NCBI GenBank assembly: GCA_045541975.1 | Contig: JAZQKB010000026.1 | Location: 4,593-68,592, forward strand | Length of the DNA stretch: 64,000 nucleotides | Direction of reading: 5' to 3' | DNA from: Clostridia bacterium | Lineage (GTDB): Bacteria; Bacillota; Clostridia; UMGS1840 | In this document: positions 30,259 through 38,444 of the stretch, piece after piece | Layout: each line of letters opens with the position of its first letter | Position numbering within the stretch: the stretch's first letter is position 1 | The notes under the pieces: generated by a model | Seen by the model: the letters and a program-made list of their open reading frames with translations, nothing else | Told to the model about the DNA's origin: nothing | The model's database searches: none | Position numbers and translations under genes: made by a program

Positions 30259-31740
30259 GTGGAAAAAACATATCTTTGCATTGATTTAAAGTCTTTTTAT
30301 GCCTCCGTGGAATGTATGGAACGAGGATTGGACCCGCTAAAAACCAATCTGGTGGTTGCCGATAGCTCCCGTACGGAAAAAACCATCTGCTTAGCGGTAA
30401 CACCCAGTTTAAAACAGTACGGTCTTTCGGGCCGTTCCCGTTTGTTTGAAGTAGTAAAACGGGTTCGTGAGGTGAATGAGGAACGGCTCCGTCATGCACC
30501 AAATCGCACCTTTTCGGGAGAATCCCATCAGGCGGATTGTTTGAAAACCGATCCGTCCTTAAAATTGTCTTACCTGATTGCACCACCTCGTATGGCACAC
30601 TATATGGAATACAGTACCAAAATTTATGATGTTTATTTAAAATATGTTTCTCACGAAGATATTTTAGTATATTCCATTGATGAAGTTTTTATTGATTTAA
30701 CGGCATATTTGCCGTTTTATAAAAAAACAGCACGGGAATTGGCATTGCTCATTATCCGTGATGTGCTTGCAACTACAGGGATAACTGCCACAGCGGGCAT
30801 TGGCACCAATTTGTATCTTGCCAAAATTGCGATGGACATCAAAGCCAAAAAAATGCCTGCCGATCGCGACGGTGTGCGAATTGCGTTTTTAGACGAAAAA
30901 AGCTATCGTCAGGAGCTATGGAACCATCAGCCGTTGACTGATTTTTGGAGAGTGGGGCAGGGTTCTGCCAAACGGTTGGAAAGCCGTCGGATGTATACCA
31001 TGGGAGATATTGCCCGTGCATCCTTGTCGGCAGATGGCAGAAAGGTTTTAAAAAAATTGTTCGGCATCAATGCCAAACTTCTCATTGATCATGCCTGGGG
31101 GTATGAACCTTGTGATATTGCAGAGGCTAAGGCCTATATTCCCGAAAATCGCAGTCTAAGCTCAGGACAGGTGTTATCTTCTCCCTATGATTATGAAAAA
31201 ACACGAATCATCGTTCGGGAGATGACGGAGCTGATGGCGTTGGATTTGGTGGAAAAACGGATTTTGACTGACCAGTTGACCTTAACGATTGGTTACGATA
31301 CCGAAAACGTGACCAAAAACTTCAAAGGAACCGTGGAAACTGACCGTTACGGCAGAAAAACTCCGAAATCTGCTCACGGCACCGTGAATCTTTCCCAAAT
31401 GACTTCCTCCACCATGCTGATGATGGAGGGAATGATGGAACTGTTTGAACGAATTGTAGATTCCCGCCTGACTGTTCGCCGGATAACGATTTCGGCAAAT
31501 CGGTTGGTATTGGAAAAAAGCTATCAAAAAGAACCGGTGTACGAACAACTGGATTTATTTACCAGCCAAGATGAAAAACAGGCAAAAGAAAAACAGTTAG
31601 AAAAAGAACGCAGTCTTCAGGAAACGACCGTCCGTCTTCGTAATAAATTTGGCAAAAATGCCGTATTAAAAGGCACCAACCTGCAGGAAGGTGCCACCAC
31701 TATGGATAGAAACCGTCAGATTGGCGGTCATAAAGCGTAG
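30259..31740 (+). CDS. Y-family DNA polymerase (UmuC/ImpB/UvrX-like)
   Basis: CIDLKSFYASVEC, YSIDEVFIDLT and ATAGIGTNLYLAKIAMD are Y-family catalytic motifs. GTG start follows ggaggagg. Confidence 0.9.
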   Translation: MEKTYLCIDLKSFYASVECMERGLDPLKTNLVVADSSRTEKTICLAVTPSLKQYGLSGRSRLFEVVKRVREVNEERLRHAPNRTFSGESHQADCLKTDPSLKLSYLIAPPRMAHYMEYSTKIYDVYLKYVSHEDILVYSIDEVFIDLTAYLPFYKKTARELALLIIRDVLATTGITATAGIGTNLYLAKIAMDIKAKKMPADRDGVRIAFLDEKSYRQELWNHQPLTDFWRVGQGSAKRLESRRMYTMGDIARASLSADGRKVLKKLFGINAKLLIDHAWGYEPCDIAEAKAYIPENRSLSSGQVLSSPYDYEKTRIIVREMTELMALDLVEKRILTDQLTLTIGYDTENVTKNFKGTVETDRYGRKTPKSAHGTVNLSQMTSSTMLMMEGMMELFERIVDSRLTVRRITISANRLVLEKSYQKEPVYEQLDLFTSQDEKQAKEKQLEKERSLQETTVRLRNKFGKNAVLKGTNLQEGATTMDRNRQIGGHKA

Positions 31741-31750
31741 GTGAATTTTT

Positions 31751-32170
31751 TTGGACAACTTAGAAAACTTTTATCGTGATATCATACATTATTCCTATCC
31801 CAATCCCGAAATTGAAAAAGACTTTCCCGATCCGGTATTGCGGGGCGCTCAGTTTGCACCTTTTGCAGCCTTAACAGGCCACGATGAAGCAATCGAGGAA
31901 ACTGCCCGGTTAACTGACGGAAAAATTATTTTGTCCGAAACACGACAGGAAGAAATCAACCGCAGCCTGCAGTTTCTTTTAGAGCATATCGGGGAACACC
32001 CGATGGTTTTAGTTACCTATTTTGTAGCCGACCAAAAAAAGCAGGGTGGTGCTTATGATACGAAACAGGAAACTGTCTTAAAAATTCGCGCTGCTGAACA
32101 AATTTTACTTCTTTCTGACAAAACCGAAATCTCATTTTCCGATATTTTAAATCTGGGAATTTTAGCATAG
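31751..32170 (+). CDS. YolD-like protein
   Basis: 139-aa ORF immediately after the Y-family polymerase, with the FAPFAALTGH motif typical of YolD-like partners. TTG start. Confidence 0.65.
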   Translation: MDNLENFYRDIIHYSYPNPEIEKDFPDPVLRGAQFAPFAALTGHDEAIEETARLTDGKIILSETRQEEINRSLQFLLEHIGEHPMVLVTYFVADQKKQGGAYDTKQETVLKIRAAEQILLLSDKTEISFSDILNLGILA

Positions 32171-32244
32171 CATTTTCCAACAACTATAAGAGAGTTATCG
32201 CAAAGCCAATAGGAGCAAATTTCCAAACTATCTTCGTTTCGCAC

Positions 32245-32280
32245 AAAAAAAATCTGTAACCCTTGCGGTTACAGACTTTT
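32245..32280. terminator. rho-independent terminator
   Basis: ctgtaacc/ggttacag stem with loop cttgc, preceded by A8 and followed by acTTTT. Confidence 0.65.
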
Positions 32281-32283
32281 GGG

Positions 32284-32327
32284 TGGCAGGGGCAGTAGGA
32301 TTTGAACAGGGGCACATAGGATTTAAG
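32284..32327 (-). repeat. tandem tRNA-Trp 3'-end-like remnants (att-site scars), not a functional tRNA
   Basis: The reverse complement of 32284-32307 reads GTTCAAATCCTACTGCCCCTGCCA. That is T-loop, T-stem 3' strand, acceptor 3' strand, discriminator G and CCA, matching the bacterial tRNA-Trp 3' end from memory. A degenerate second 20-mer (32308-32327) follows. No 5' half of a tRNA is present. Confidence 0.6.
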
Positions 32328-32481
32328 TTGGTGCAAGACGAATTAAATTGTGTTATCCTACACCTCGAAAAGCATTGGGGTTACAGGCTTTTTCAAATGT
32401 AGTGGCGGAAAACCCGCAAAATTCAAATAATTACGAAATTTTAAAATTTTGACCAAAAAGTTGGTGCAAAGTTGGTGCAAG
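32325..32481 (+). repeat. three copies of AAGTTGGTGCAA(G/A)
   Basis: Copies at 32325-32337, 32458-32470 and 32469-32481. The last two are in tandem and overlap by 2 nt. Confidence 0.7.
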
Positions 32482-32534
32482 CACTAGTCTGCATATACGC
32501 AAAAAAATATTTAGATTTATTATTTTAATTTAAT

Positions 32535-32570
32535 AAAAAAATGGAACAGACTTACTGTTCCATTTTTTTA
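32535..32570. terminator. bidirectional rho-independent terminator
   Basis: atggaacag/ctgttccat 9-bp stem flanked by A7 and T7, downstream of the 32623 gene. Confidence 0.8.
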
Positions 32571-32622
32571 TGCTTAGTAAGTGTACAAAGTTTAGACTAT
32601 AATGTATACGTGAGTTTATTAT

Positions 32623-33045
32623 TTAACCTTGATTTTGCCTATAAATTTCTTTTAAATTTTCAATAGCAAGTACGGGATCCATTGTGTGAAACACCATATA
32701 ATTTCGTTTCATTGTATCAACAGGAGCCTGCTTATATATTTTGGAACTATCTTCACCGGTGTAAAAATGCCAGTAGCGATAAAGATATCCAATCCAATAG
32801 ATTACATCAACAGAAAAGACTTCTCCCTCTGAAGATGAGATACCTGTATTTTGGGATATCAATTCTTCAAGCAGGTATTCTTCTCCAGCCCACTGCATAC
32901 GGTTATATTTTGAATCTAAATCTTTAGCAATTTTAGAAGTCATAAACGCTTTGATAAAGGGTGCACTGCTATAACCTTTTTGAGTAGCTAATTCAAAAAG
33001 TCTGCCTTGAATATCACACAGTTTTAATTGTAATTCATCAATCAT
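32623..33045 (-). CDS. hypothetical protein translationally coupled to the HTH-DUF3990-like gene (possibly DUF3791-like partner)
   Basis: 140-aa ORF. Its ATG lies 2 nt after the upstream stop, and an aaggaga RBS sits inside the upstream gene end. Confidence 0.55.
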   Translation of the reverse strand: MIDELQLKLCDIQGRLFELATQKGYSSAPFIKAFMTSKIAKDLDSKYNRMQWAGEEYLLEELISQNTGISSSEGEVFSVDVIYWIGYLYRYWHFYTGEDSSKIYKQAPVDTMKRNYMVFHTMDPVLAIENLKEIYRQNQG

Positions 33046-33047
33046 GA

Positions 33048-33917
33048 TTATTCTCCTTTCGCTTCGTCAAGGATTTCATCAAAAAACTTGCCATCACGGC
33101 GATGACTTTTGCAGATATCGTTTGCCAGAGATACACCTTTCGCCCTGTTTTCTTCTGCAATATTTTTCATAACAAGTCTTTCAAGATAAGAAAGAGGTAT
33201 TTCGGCTTCTATACGAACAGCGTTACAGCCTTTTTGGGAAATGGTTACATATTGTTTACCTAACTGCAATGCGGAAAGACTGTTGACGAGAGCAATATCC
33301 GTAATATTTCCAACGAAAAAGTTATCGATGACATAAAACATTCTATCATTTGCAATACTGCCGATGATTAAATCCTTGTCAGCCATCATATTGCAATATT
33401 GATTGTAAAGGGGAGTATCTTTTATGGTTTCCATCTTGCCCCGGTTATATGCCACGAGCATAGCCCAGTCAATATCCGGATTCACTTCTAAACATTTTAA
33501 CTTATCAGTACAAATTGATACAATATAAAATTTCGACTCCTCATAATCGCAGACAAGGGTAAGAGGTTGATTTGGATCGGTTCCCATATAAAAGCCTTCG
33601 CCAAAGTCACATTGTTTACGGCTTTTTGGTGCAATATCCCCAATGATACCAGATTTAGAACCGTGATAAAGCAGAATTCTGTTTTTTTCCAGTTTGATAT
33701 CTTGGGAAGCTTGTTGGATTTTTTCCAGAATCATATCGTAAACAGGTATGCTTTTGTCCTTGCATATATCGTACAGTTTTGTTTGAGCAAGTTTATTTGG
33801 GATAGCATGCCCGTTTTCCCAACGGTTGACTGTTGCAAAAGATACGCCGAGCCAAGCTGCAAATTCATTTTGACTCATATTTATAATGTTTCTGATTCTT
33901 TTTATTATAGTATTCAT
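33048..33917 (-). CDS. XRE-family HTH fused to DUF3990-like domain
   Basis: The N-terminus MSQNEFAAWLGVSFATVNRWENG is a canonical XRE HTH. The C-terminal part has LLYHGSKSG, DFGEGFYMGT and IIGSIANDRMF, which is the DUF3990 pattern as I remember it. Confidence 0.7.
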   Translation of the reverse strand: MNTIIKRIRNIINMSQNEFAAWLGVSFATVNRWENGHAIPNKLAQTKLYDICKDKSIPVYDMILEKIQQASQDIKLEKNRILLYHGSKSGIIGDIAPKSRKQCDFGEGFYMGTDPNQPLTLVCDYEESKFYIVSICTDKLKCLEVNPDIDWAMLVAYNRGKMETIKDTPLYNQYCNMMADKDLIIGSIANDRMFYVIDNFFVGNITDIALVNSLSALQLGKQYVTISQKGCNAVRIEAEIPLSYLERLVMKNIAEENRAKGVSLANDICKSHRRDGKFFDEILDEAKGE

Positions 33918-33975
33918 ATTCCCACCTCAATATAACATTGTTTACATTGATTATTATATCAAATGTTATATACTA

Positions 33976-34026
33976 TGTCAATAATTTCTTACAAATATTA
34001 AATAAAATTCTTGAAAAATAAAGAAC
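33976..34026 (+). repeat. about 50-nt promoter-region repeat, copy 1 (partner at 34981-35030)
   Basis: tgtcaaTaatttcttacaaatattaaataaaattCttgaaaaataaagaa differs from the 34981 copy at 2 positions. Confidence 0.85.
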
Positions 34027-34232
34027 GGAAAGAACTTGTAAAACACAAAACGTAAAAATATATTATTATTGAAAAGTGTATAAAATGTTCTATGAAATAT
34101 ATTGAAAAGTGTGAAATAGAGTTTTTTCTTTATGTTGATTAGAAAGATTTAAGCATAAATTGAGGATTATTTTACTTTTCGACAAAATAATAATAAAAAA
34201 CCTGAAAAATAATAACCAGGAAAGGAGGAAAC

Positions 34233-34604
34233 ATGGGTGAATTGCTTATGAAATATGACCGGGTAAAATTACCCCGGAACAGTCTGTCTGAAGGCAAGGG
34301 GATTATGCGCTTCTGGGTGAGAATTGCAGTTTGTGCAGCCTTTCGCACAGGTCCGTGGAAATACTGTGAACATGTCAATAGATTAGTCTATTGGTACAGT
34401 AAAAAAATTACACAGAAATCCTATGCAAATGAGTCCGAAAATCGCGTTGCACTTTTTGACGCTATAATACGCGCGTATATTTCTCCTTGTAATTATTGTG
34501 AGTATTGTAAGCATTGTAAATATGACTGCAGGAGTATTGATTATAGTTACAGTAGAACAATAGAGTCAGATAATATTAGGGGACCTTGTTTCCCGTCGGA
34601 CTGA
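34233..34604 (+). CDS. in-frame internal-deletion derivative of the 35045 initiator-like gene
   Basis: The 123-aa product equals the N-terminal roughly 46 aa plus the C-terminal roughly 77 aa of the 345-aa paralog. Estimated by eye, the shared parts are roughly 85% identical at nucleotide level. Confidence 0.7.
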   Translation: MGELLMKYDRVKLPRNSLSEGKGIMRFWVRIAVCAAFRTGPWKYCEHVNRLVYWYSKKITQKSYANESENRVALFDAIIRAYISPCNYCEYCKHCKYDCRSIDYSYSRTIESDNIRGPCFPSD

Positions 34605-34980
34605 ATGAACTGTTGAACTACATAACAGTACTGAATAACCAATCATTTCTGATGGCAATAAATTGGCACAAAAATGGCACAGTTTTGCCGATGACAAACA
34701 AATACAAATGTGTTATATTGGTAGTGTCAAAAGGTGGGGGTGGACAATAAAACACTGTTTTGGCAGTTGTCTTACATTCAAAAAAGAGACAATGATTCTG
34801 ATTAAAAAGTTGATGGCATCAGATAGTACGGAGGTATTGCAAATTGTTTGATTTGATGAAGAACTTTTACTGTTATCCGCAATTCTTTTCACGAAAAAAT
34901 GAATAAAATGATAGAAATCTCCAAAATGCAGCGGTTTTTGCGAGATTTGCAATCTGAAACTAAGACATCTGTTATATATG

Positions 34981-35030
34981 TGTCAAAAATTTCTTACAAA
35001 TATTAAATAAAATTATTGAAAAATAAAGAA
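34981..35030 (+). repeat. about 50-nt promoter-region repeat, copy 2
   Basis: See the 33976-34026 entry. Here it is directly followed by aggaggg and the ATG at 35045. Confidence 0.85.
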
Positions 35031-35044
35031 AGGAGGGAACCTGT

Positions 35045-36082
35045 ATGAAATGTTTGATGAAGTATGAATGGGTTAAATTACCCCGTACTCATCTACCTGA
35101 TGGGAAAGGACTGATGCGTTCCTGGACAAGACTTGCATCTCGTGCAGCATTTCGAAAAGGCCAAGCAGAATATTGCGGTCATATCAATCCTGTGAACGCA
35201 GGAGAGTGGTCTGGCGGTATTGTTGGGGTACAGAGTATTCTTGAAATAAAAAAGCGTTCTGCAGCGCTGACAACACTGGATAAATTATCGGAACTTGGAT
35301 ACTTGGGTTATACCCTTGATGCAAAGACAAAACGGCTTACCTATCGAATTAGCGACTGGGTGGTAAACTGTTCCAGTGAAGAGTGTATGGATGGGAACGT
35401 ATATACTTCTCAGGGATACGGGTTCCTGTGCCTTCCACGGAATATAACAGAACGACTTGTAGAACAAAATTACATATTTGAAGAATCAGACGCATGGTTG
35501 GATTTATGGTGTCACACAGTATCCGAAGATCCAAACAATGCGTTTTCTTTTTTAGCACCGATAGTTCAGTATGGAAAATTTGGAGTTGTTTTAACTTTGG
35601 AAACCTTGGGAAATCGCTGGGGTTGGGAAAAAACAAAGGTATGGAGATTTTTGAAAAAGCACGGGGATATCTTTGCTAAGTATCGTTTACCCGGCTCTTA
35701 CGGTTGTCTTATTTATAATAAACTTTATCCTATCAATAAAGAGGTTTCACTACCTACAGATGAAAAAATTGTGGGTATATTGGATGAAGTGCGAACCCTT
35801 GGAACTCATACACATAAACATGTCAGCGATCACGAGCATATCAATCGGTTAGTCTATTGGTACAGCAAAAAAATCACTGAAAAAAATTGTGAAAATGTAT
35901 CCGAAAATCGCGTTGCACTTTTTGACCCTATAATATGCGCGTATATTTCTCCTTGTAATCATTGTGAGTATTGTAATCATTGTGAATATGACTGCGGGAA
36001 TATTGATTATAGTGATAGGAGAACTATAGAGTCATATAATATGCAAAAATCTTGTTTCCTGTCAGACAGAATGAACTGTTGA
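35045..36082 (+). CDS. mobile-element DNA-binding / replication-initiator-like protein with Cys-rich tail
   Basis: 345 aa with two winged-helix-like segments (LTTLDKLSELGYLGYTLD..KRLTYRISDW and LETLGNRWGWEKTKVWRFLKKHG). The C-terminal tail is CNHCEYCNHCEYDC. Confidence 0.55.
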   Translation: MKCLMKYEWVKLPRTHLPDGKGLMRSWTRLASRAAFRKGQAEYCGHINPVNAGEWSGGIVGVQSILEIKKRSAALTTLDKLSELGYLGYTLDAKTKRLTYRISDWVVNCSSEECMDGNVYTSQGYGFLCLPRNITERLVEQNYIFEESDAWLDLWCHTVSEDPNNAFSFLAPIVQYGKFGVVLTLETLGNRWGWEKTKVWRFLKKHGDIFAKYRLPGSYGCLIYNKLYPINKEVSLPTDEKIVGILDEVRTLGTHTHKHVSDHEHINRLVYWYSKKITEKNCENVSENRVALFDPIICAYISPCNHCEYCNHCEYDCGNIDYSDRRTIESYNMQKSCFLSDRMNC

Positions 36083-36380
36083 ATCACAAGTAATTTCAAA
36101 CAAATTGTTGTTGGTGTCGATCACAGCATTGGTGGTGTCAAATAATAGGACGGCGGTAAAAGATATGTGGGTCAATTAAGAATTTATGTTCTGATATTCT
36201 ACTTTCACAAGGAAAAAATGGTGTAAAATCTGCCGAAATTCTTCAAAAAATTGATACAGTACTTTATAAAAAGACAAAACCCTGGGATTTCAGATGATTT
36301 GAGCAGCAGAGGTATCTGAAATTCGCCAGAGAGAGCAAATAATATGGCGAAAAAAACTTGCAAAAGGAGCGTGATTATGT

Positions 36381-37703: not shown

Positions 37704-37951
37704 GTGACAGGGGCTTGCATCCAGGCTTTCGGTACATCGGAAGAATTCCCGGTGTTAGACTTGCTCGAGGATGTAGTAGGGAACCGTTACGGATTTAGCG
37801 CACTGAGCGATCCATAATGATGCAAGCAAAACTGAATATGAAGCCGGAGGGCTGCTAATACTTTACAGAGTCAATCGTGGGGATGAGACACCCAAATTTC
37901 CCGACACTTGGCTCTGTATTGTCATTTTTGCAGACCTTCCGGCTTTTTTTT
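37704..37951 (+). ncRNA. structured RNA / leader of about 245 nt (possibly the DUF3268-associated RNA motif)
   Basis: It has a perfect 9-bp long-range helix (37713-37721 with 37819-37827). A 14-bp helix with one bulge pairs 37842-37855 with 37930-37944. An 11-bp inner helix pairs 37864-37874 with 37908-37918. It ends in T8 at 37944-37951. To the eye it is much more GC-rich than its flanks. Confidence 0.6.
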
Positions 37952-37973
37952 ATTGCAATTGGAGGTAATTTAC

Positions 37974-38444
37974 GTGAATAAAAAGAACAAAAAACGAAAG
38001 GGAATTAATGCAGCTCCTACCCGTTGTCCTTACTGCGGCGGACGTGTTGTTTTCCGGAGTGCCGATGGCATTTACCAGGAAAACCACAATGGTAGGATGC
38101 TTTATGTATGTTCCCGTTATCCTGAATGTGATGCTTATGTCAGAACCCATGACGGAACAAGGATTCCTGTTGGTAGTATGGCAAATCACGAACTGAGAAT
38201 TCTCAGAAAAACTGCACACCATTATTTTGATCAGTTACATAAATCCGGTCTGATGACCAAAGACGGTGCTTACGACTGGTTAGCCAATGTGATTGATGAA
38301 CCAAAGTCTTACGCACATATAGGGCTCTTGAGTGAATACTATTGCAAACAGGTGATTGAACAGAGTAAAGAATACTTAAGACGTTATAAGAATAAGCAGA
38401 AAAACTTGCAGTCTAAAAAGAGAAGAGGGGAGCTGATTTCATGA
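37974..38444 (+). CDS. zinc-ribbon protein (DUF3268-like, topoisomerase-type C4 finger)
   Basis: GTG at 37974 lies 7 nt after ggaggt. CPYCGG...CSRYPECDAYV forms a C4 zinc ribbon, followed by a helical C-terminal half. The ATG at 37908 lies inside the RNA helix and is rejected as the start. Confidence 0.65.
   Translation: MNKKNKKRKGINAAPTRCPYCGGRVVFRSADGIYQENHNGRMLYVCSRYPECDAYVRTHDGTRIPVGSMANHELRILRKTAHHYFDQLHKSGLMTKDGAYDWLANVIDEPKSYAHIGLLSEYYCKQVIEQSKEYLRRYKNKQKNLQSKKRRGELIS

Follow-up and report, generated by a model that had tools for sequence, protein, structure and literature searches.

Toxins of the ADP-ribosyltransferase (ART) clan that are tightly coupled to a neutralising partner are found in Xre-RES, ParST, MbcTA and DarTG, and two of these, Xre-RES and ParST, have an all-helical domain that binds the toxin and is linked to an XRE-type helix-turn-helix (HTH). 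A two-gene locus with a comparable layout lies in a stretch of 64,000 nucleotides from a Clostridia bacterium (contig JAZQKB010000026.1, positions 4,593 to 68,592; hereafter the window, whose own coordinates are used throughout). Both genes are on the minus strand. Gene A (33917-33048) encodes a 289-aa protein that fuses an XRE-type HTH to a DUF3990 domain, a putative effector or toxin that would also act as autorepressor, and gene B (33045-32623) encodes a 140-aa, all-helical protein, apparently a divergent DUF3791 member and a putative neutraliser or antitoxin. Unlike in the four systems above, the HTH of this locus sits on the toxin-like protein, the position of the catalytic Glu is apparently taken by Gln, and B has no sequence or fold match to their antitoxins. 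The joining of an all-helical domain to an HTH recurs in sister modules, in which DUF3990 is followed by a B-like protein that carries the HTH. We favour, somewhat above even, the reading that the pair is a self-repressed toxin–antitoxin (TA) or abortive-infection-type module, in which an ART-fold DUF3990 effector would be held in check by a DUF3791-type neutraliser.

Similar cassettes have been catalogued as the PADLOC candidates PDC-M42, PDC-M13 and PDC-M10, which were predicted from their embedding in type I restriction–modification (R-M), BREX and DISARM systems; the 145 candidates of this kind are predictions without assay (Payne, Hughes, Fineran, Jackson; bioRxiv 10.1101/2024.01.29.577857). 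PDC-M13 is among the most frequent candidate-defence calls in rumen genomes, and PDC-M42 is unmentioned in the searched literature. These candidates share with the present locus a DUF3990 cassette with a small partner, embedded in or adjoining R-M systems, while the N-terminal HTH and its operator are extras of the subfamily described here. Specifically, A matches the PADLOC models PDC-M13B, PDC-M13A, PDC-M42A and PDC-M10A; its match to PDC-M42A (E-value (E) 5.4e-8) covers residues 79-235 only, and those to PDC-M13B and PDC-M13A are stronger. B matches PDC-M42B with an E of 2.4e-13. Adjacent genes matching both PDC-M42 models, as PADLOC defines that candidate, are thus present, as judged by matches to the individual models. 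A preliminary description of this DNA, made from the sequence alone, had suggested a defence-type module, and relatives of the pair are indeed listed as defence candidates. In the best-supported reading, the module corresponds to PDC-M42, the repressor HTH having moved to the effector. The Pfam families and the PADLOC candidate are already catalogued; the HTH-on-effector layout, a defined candidate operator, an apparent H-Y-Q site and the novel fold of the partner appear to be new.

DUF3990 also serves as an exchangeable C-terminal toxin domain of Rhs effectors of the type VI secretion system in Serratia and Enterobacter (PMC4524185, PMC10763514). In Serratia Rhs5-CT and Enterobacter bugandensis RhsA, which belong to the same Pfam family, the exchangeable toxic tip is followed by a small immunity gene. 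The Rhs proteins are secreted polymorphic toxins of Proteobacteria, whereas gene A encodes a cytoplasmic, HTH-fused protein of Clostridia. An HTH repressor with a partner, under their own promoter and upstream of interchangeable defence genes, is likewise found in CapH/CapP and BrxR/CapW. The domains of those systems are unrelated to the present ones and, unlike them, about half of the loci of this family, including the one in the window, have no downstream defence gene, and HTH-less cassettes exist.

Operon structure, candidate operator and conserved pairing

Both open reading frames (ORFs) lie where the preliminary description had placed them, and the motifs that it had pointed out in A, LLYHGS (residues 82-87), FGEGFY (105-110) and GSIANDRMF (186-194), are all present. 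The junction of the two genes reads GAA GCG AAA GGA GAA TAA TC ATG, with a gap of 2 nt between the stop codon of A and the start codon of B. The Shine-Dalgarno sequence of gene B, AAAGGAGAA (33051-33059, minus strand), is made by the last three codons of A, in agreement with the translational coupling proposed earlier. Upstream of A, a sigma-70 promoter (33953-33981, minus strand) matches the consensus at 12/12 positions, with a TTGACA -35 box at 33981-33976, a 17-nt spacer and a TG-extended TATAAT -10 box at 33958-33953. An intrinsic terminator, consisting of a hairpin and a U-run (32533-32571, minus strand; -20 kcal/mol, z = -7.1), follows about 52 nt past the stop codon of B. With its own promoter and its own terminator, the pair therefore forms a compact operon of about 1.45 kb.

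The locus was compared with 80 loci from the genomes of other species, in which A is 63-85% identical. The same TTGACA...TATAAT arrangement precedes A in orthologous loci, and an inverted repeat, TATAACAT-N24-ATGTTATA (33931-33970, no strand assigned), flanks the -10 box as a candidate operator. Its perfect 10-nt arms are ATATAACATT at 33930-33939 and AATGTTATAT at 33962-33971. The repeat occurs once in the window, where chance would give 0.03 occurrences, and the 1.69-Mb genome as a whole has no second copy. Allowing up to one mismatch in each arm, 71 of 79 orthologous loci carry it upstream of A, 64 of them with a spacer of exactly 24 nt, and it is conserved despite the unrelated non-coding DNA around it. 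In line with a role in recognition by A, a symmetric arm variant, ATCAT...ATGAT, is found in exactly four loci (L062, L065, L067 and L074), and these are exactly the loci whose recognition helix starts with Y-L or Y-I in place of F-A. The joint change of the recognition helix and both half-sites was probably a single evolutionary event. This is strong sequence-level evidence that the HTH of A would bind the candidate operator and repress its own promoter, and a conserved operator overlying the operon's own promoter is the layout of the autoregulated module that had been proposed.

Homologues of A number about 4,800 and those of B about 4,300, mainly in assemblies of gut and rumen Clostridia. 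B lies directly downstream of A on the same strand in 80/80 loci, usually with a gap of 0-27 nt. Of 399 evenly sampled Clostridia genomes, 83, about a fifth, have DUF3990, and B follows A in all 16 of the HTH-fused copies that were fetched from them. The pairing is thus no coincidence, and the obligatory status of the 140-aa partner, asserted beforehand, holds in both sets of loci. The flanks of the 80 loci are unrelated to one another and mostly chromosomal, with no flanking family in more than 15. Both genes are under strong purifying selection, with a ratio of nonsynonymous to synonymous substitution rates (dN/dS) of about 0.03-0.09 against their closest relatives, at saturated dS. Given the constant pairing, the changing surroundings and the selection, the two genes behave as a self-standing module that moves horizontally and is maintained by selection. 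In the genome of the window it is single-copy, and the 10 further genomes sampled from the genus have no orthologue. A search of viral contigs found no close relatives, and phage and plasmid collections contain only distant DUF3990 genes, so that a phage or plasmid origin of this copy is not supported. Taken together, two hallmarks of type II TA modules are found here at the level of sequence: coupled genes, predicted to be co-transcribed, that are kept together across genomes, and a candidate operator in the module's own promoter, in the form of a conserved, genome-unique palindrome that co-varies with the recognition helix.

A class-wide survey of DUF3990 loci revealed four layouts, in all of which the genes overlap or nearly abut. 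In layout I, a DUF3990 gene (~155 aa) lies between a DUF3791 gene and a DUF3791-like gene; in layout II, DUF3990 is followed by a partner of ~150 aa; in layout III, DUF3990 with a C-terminal extension (~225 aa) is followed by a 215-aa partner that combines a B-like N-terminal domain with a C-terminal HTH_3; and layout IV is that of the window, HTH-DUF3990 with the extension followed by B. The layout III partner aligns with B over 114 columns (hhalign, E 5e-8). Since the HTH moves between the subunits, the simplest view is that the two proteins form one DNA-binding complex. Layouts III and IV also occur in tandem at one locus (L140, G325:C22, 2483-5299), where a 274-aa DUF3990 protein and a 211-aa B-like-HTH protein are followed by a 305-aa HTH-DUF3990 protein and a 146-aa B.

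The two components decay unequally. Among 15 loci in which the DUF3990 match is stop-interrupted or fragmentary, partner ORFs of intact length are kept in 10, as DUF3791 genes upstream and/or downstream of the remnant; at one layout IV locus (L137), an intact B stands beside an A split by a stop codon. Of the intact DUF3990 genes inspected, about 130, none is without a partner. The decay of DUF3990 and the persistence of its partners are as expected if DUF3990 is toxic and DUF3791-type proteins are protective. The use of DUF3990 as a toxin domain in Rhs effectors independently points the same way. Many DUF3990 pseudogenes and fragments with intact flanking DUF3791 genes were seen in various Clostridia genomes (L141-L152), which suggests that the enzyme component is often inactivated.

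Predicted folds of A and B

Both Pfam domains of the HTH-DUF3990 fusion that had been read from the sequence score above their gathering thresholds. The XRE-type HTH (HTH_3) occupies residues 5-41 of A (33795-33905, minus strand; 32.4 bits against a cut-off of 23, E 9.8e-8), and DUF3990 (PF13151) occupies residues 82-234 (33216-33674, minus strand; 94.1 bits against a cut-off of 32.2, E 8.7e-27). The DUF3990 match spans positions 2-150 of the 152 positions of the profile and was also recovered in a whole-genome search. Residues 235-289 (33051-33215, minus strand) form a C-terminal helical extension that is limited to DUF3990 forms paired with long B-type partners. The HTH matches XRE HTH structures in Foldseek with a probability of 1.0; among solved structures it is closest to the HTHs of antitoxins and controllers (HigA2, C.BclI and P22 c2), and in NCBIfam it matches the MqsA-family HTH (E 7e-8). 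Searches of PHROGs and NCBIfam gave generic HTH matches only.

The AlphaFold2 model of A has a predicted local distance difference test score (pLDDT) of 96.8 and a predicted template-modelling score (pTM) of 0.92. When the full-length model was compared with solved structures by Foldseek, every match outside the HTH was to an ADP-ribosyltransferase, including the diphtheria-toxin homologue 7rb4 (E 3.7e-3, probability 0.92) and the catalytic domains of PARP10/15 (E ~0.1). Among viral models, PolyVal ADP-ribosyltransferases were matched with E of 1.7e-3 and 9e-3, together with giant polyvalent proteins. A check of a model against ART folds had been proposed beforehand, and for the full-length model its outcome among solved structures, outside the HTH, is weak matches, all of them to ARTs. 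Additionally, a permissive Pfam scan of 53 family members gave only two recurring extra families, ART-PolyVal (3) and PARP (2). That DUF3990 belongs to the ADP-ribosyltransferase clan of Pfam, as the preliminary description had put it, is stated in the literature (PMC7955679). A has no Pfam match to RES, DarT or ParT, and sequence searches of PDB chains with A, B and the DUF3990 profile returned only HTH relatives or one spurious repeat match. The top structural match of A is an unnamed 202-aa viral protein (BFVD A0A0H3UZB3; E 4e-8, template-modelling (TM) score 0.56 on the target), probably a phage-borne stand-alone DUF3990.

Residues 75-289 of A match 934 clusters (one representative per 50% cluster), of which the HTH-fused forms are about 285 aa and the stand-alone forms about 205-250 aa long. 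Ten residues, H85, D104, F105, G106, Y110, Y131, W151, R159, D182 and Q222, are invariant in 53 stand-alone sequences that are 30-45% identical. The H-Y-E clade of ARTs has a His in strand 1, within H-G-S/T, and a Tyr in strand 2, and both are found here as the invariant H85 and Y110. An hhalign comparison with a catalytic segment of human PARP1, which serves as a lead only, pairs LYHGS with LWHGS and DFGxGFY with MFGKGIY (P 0.0025), setting H85 opposite H862 and Y110 opposite Y896. In this comparison, the HGS and GFY motifs fit the H-Y-type NAD-binding fold that had been suggested for them. By the order of strands in the model and by the motif GxQYV against NEYIV of PARP, the Glu position of the triad is probably occupied by the invariant Q222. 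The weak fold-level matches go to PARP and diphtheria-toxin (H-Y-E) ARTs and to ART-PolyVal, with which the His and Tyr motifs and the Pfam clan are shared, whereas the third residue of the triad is probably Q222 rather than Glu and helical inserts lie between the strands. D104, W151, R159 and D182, invariant in DUF3990, are outside the H-Y-E triad. The model and weak profile matches thus point to an ART fold with the His and Tyr of the NAD pocket, with the classical H-Y-E triad apparently incomplete.

B is modelled as a bundle of ten helices (AlphaFold2, pLDDT 93) and has no structural neighbour in a Foldseek search of the PDB, where the best E is 1.3. Its residues 103-137 match DUF3791 (PF12668) below the threshold (16.3 bits against 25, E 0.0095). 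Such sub-threshold matches (E<=1) are found in 114 of 134 members of the B family, the best at 1.4e-5, which points to B as a divergent DUF3791 protein; a profile built from B also picks up a DUF3791-like ORF. B is soluble and mildly acidic (isoelectric point 5.2), and its nearly invariant residues do not resemble a catalytic set. An MbcA/ParS/Xre-type or macrodomain antitoxin was considered for B and rejected, as the search of PDB folds gave no neighbour. An origin from two DUF3791 repeats was dropped because hhalign against small DUF3791 sets was too weak (P ~0.02).

Proposed mechanism and its alternatives

In the TA or abortive-infection-type reading, the DUF3990 domain of A would be the toxic effector, with a NAD-binding ART fold, and would probably modify a protein or nucleic acid by means of NAD+. 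The XRE HTH of A, as a dimer, would bind TATAACAT-N24-ATGTTATA astride the -10 box, and A bound at this operator would shut off the operon's own very strong promoter. B, translationally coupled to A, would bind and neutralise the DUF3990 domain. If B were lost, titrated or degraded, for example when a phage infects or the element is lost, the DUF3990 domain could become active and growth could stop; this last step is speculative. The HTH may sit on either subunit because the A–B complex would be the working unit, as in the sister modules that carry it on the partner.

What follows B differs between loci. A same-strand gene begins within 250 nt past B in 39 of the 80 loci, often after 2-60 nt, gaps that are too close for a terminator. 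Among the remaining 41, the next gene is on the opposite strand in 31, a same-strand gene lies more than 250 nt away in 5, and nothing is called downstream in 5. Genes directly after B on the same strand include HsdM (5), Eco57I-like methylases (3) and type IV restriction enzymes (3), further GmrSD, Mrr, NERD, Fic, DUF4238, DUF3427 and one Cas9, as well as a few housekeeping genes. In about half of the related loci, the same promoter would thus also read into restriction, GmrSD, Fic, NERD or Cas9 genes, which places the pair in defence islands. The Cas9 gene (REC, PI, RuvC and HNH) begins 167 nt after the pair and on its strand, in a contig from an uncultured Faecalibacterium (L015:7465-11415). 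A related cassette is inserted into a type I R-M operon on a Moraxella osloensis plasmid (L123; NZ_CP014236.1, 4454-8001), in the order hsdM, DUF3990, small gene, DUF3791, hsdS with 4-nt overlaps. In the window there is no passenger gene; the terminator follows B, and the next gene (yolD-like) is convergent.

Several points weigh against the TA or abortive-infection-type reading. A DNA-binding domain on the toxin rather than on the antitoxin is unusual for type II TA modules. The Foldseek matches to solved ARTs are weak, with no E below 1e-3 and TM scores of about 0.15-0.27 for the full-length model, and profile searches detect no solved structure that is related to DUF3990 by sequence. A conserved Glu, as the catalytic residue of the H-Y-E clade, was found nowhere in the DUF3990 domain; with Q222 probably in its place, classical NAD+-dependent transfer may not occur. 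The module is nearly absent from phage and plasmid collections, and a role in plasmid addiction is not supported. The literature searched on DUF3990 and DUF3791 contains no experiment on a protein of either family, in agreement with the earlier statement that no function has been demonstrated. Domain content, pairing, coupling, the conservation and uniqueness of the operator, the swap of the HTH between subunits, the unequal decay and the company of defence genes are observed; that A binds B and the operator, that it is toxic, that it uses NAD+ and what triggers it are inferred.

The main rival, which we consider possible but rather unlikely, is that the pair is not itself a toxin and acts mainly as a regulatory head, a switch that senses infection or stress on behalf of downstream defence genes, much as CapH/CapP, BrxR/CapW or the controller proteins of R-M systems do. 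The ART-like domain with B as co-factor would sense, for example, DNA damage or molecules derived from NAD+ and lift the repression by HTH-DUF3990. The close same-strand followers in 39 of the 80 loci fit this view, as do the many defence genes among them that differ between genomes (HsdM, Eco57I-like, type IV restriction enzyme, GmrSD, Mrr, NERD, Fic, DUF4238 and Cas9), the strong promoter with its conserved operator and the Gln in place of the catalytic Glu, which would suit binding over catalysis. However, the view is weakened by the many conserved copies without a passenger: in the other 41 loci and in the window, the pair lacks a close same-strand passenger and is yet intact and under purifying selection, and because the operator is absent elsewhere in the genome, a regulator here would control only itself. 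Moreover, DUF3791-DUF3990-DUF3791 cassettes that lack an HTH are embedded within R-M operons, DUF3990 serves as a toxin tip in Rhs effectors, and it is DUF3990 that decays while its partners persist.

A further reading, which we regard as unlikely, takes the pair for a portable sensor-effector head. An H-Y-Q ART-fold domain would be restrained by a partner whose helical fold is novel, both together would repress a very strong promoter, and infection would release a toxic modification of nucleic acid or protein and at the same time de-repress a downstream defence gene (R-M, GmrSD, Fic or Cas9). If true, abortive infection would be coupled to induced innate and adaptive immunity genes.

A function outside genetic conflict, as a housekeeping enzyme or one for the establishment of a mobile element (for example a NAD+- or ADP-ribose-related modifier such as ART-PolyVal) with B as accessory subunit, is less likely and, in our estimate, improbable. 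It would account for the structural resemblance to the PolyVal ARTs that phages and conjugative elements carry and for the place of the pair at the edge of a conjugative-element remnant in the window, but the unrelated and mostly chromosomal flanks of the 80 loci show no fixed link to conjugation genes, the pair is unevenly distributed in the genus, its neighbourhood is enriched in defence genes, and the decay is asymmetric. Also less likely, and the least probable of the readings considered, is a reversal of roles in which B would be harmful and HTH-DUF3990 a type VII-like enzymatic antidote that would keep the operon repressed and either modify or sequester B: enzymatic antitoxins are known, classical type II antitoxins likewise come first and carry the HTH, and the HTH of A is most similar to those of the antitoxins HigA2 and MqsA, but degraded loci drop DUF3990 and keep the small partners, the opposite of what this would predict, sister modules have the HTH on the B-like protein, DUF3990 is the toxin tip of Rhs effectors, and B, which is soluble, helical and mildly acidic, has no invariant residues that look catalytic.

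For experiments on the TA or abortive-infection-type reading, the locus offers a 1.45-kb unit with a consensus promoter, a 40-bp candidate operator and confident models of both proteins, together with ten invariant candidate active-site residues and a natural variant in which operator and recognition helix have changed together. If the target of the H-Y-Q domain and its block by the DUF3791 fold were shown, two large DUF families would gain a function, and such work would also test whether pairs of this type drive adjacent restriction or CRISPR genes.

Surroundings of the pair in the window

The pair had been placed at the edge of a mobile-element remnant, and this stands in part. Synteny with genomes of the same genus (L165-L169), which runs through an ATP synthase operon, a dinB-like Y-family polymerase gene and a yolD-like gene, stops at about 32180-32400, and this break puts the pair at the left end of a region specific to the strain. 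A full-length DUF3268 RNA (Rfam RF02966; 37706-37828, plus strand; 106 bits) is followed downstream by a DUF3268 zinc-ribbon gene (37908-38444), with a split sigma-70-like gene also there; the DUF3268 RNA and the DUF3268 and sigma genes (34-39 kb) are typical of conjugative elements. The window contains no tRNA and no integrase that would mark an integration site. By GC content, the pair is indistinguishable from the adjoining low-GC region.

On the other side of the break, 10 nt separate the Y-family (ImpB/MucB/SamB) polymerase gene from a possibly YolD-like 139-aa gene downstream that has no Pfam match (30259-32170 for both, plus strand). All 11 genomes of the genus have kept the polymerase gene, and in the relatives that were fetched the match at nucleotide level continues through the 139-aa gene. 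A 71-nt piece at the break (32240-32310) recurs, 87% identical, 13 kb beyond yolD in another species (genome G007), which suggests a recombination hot spot, as if different islands shared one site. Upstream of A, a 65-nt block is duplicated (33976-34040 and 34981-35045, 91% identical); the -35 box that serves the pair, on the opposite strand, overlaps with the first copy. A 255-nt block is likewise duplicated (34368-34622 and 35834-36088, 84% identical), and an initiator-like gene is present in two copies, a 123-aa ORF (34233-34604) being a shortened copy of a 345-aa gene (35045-36082).

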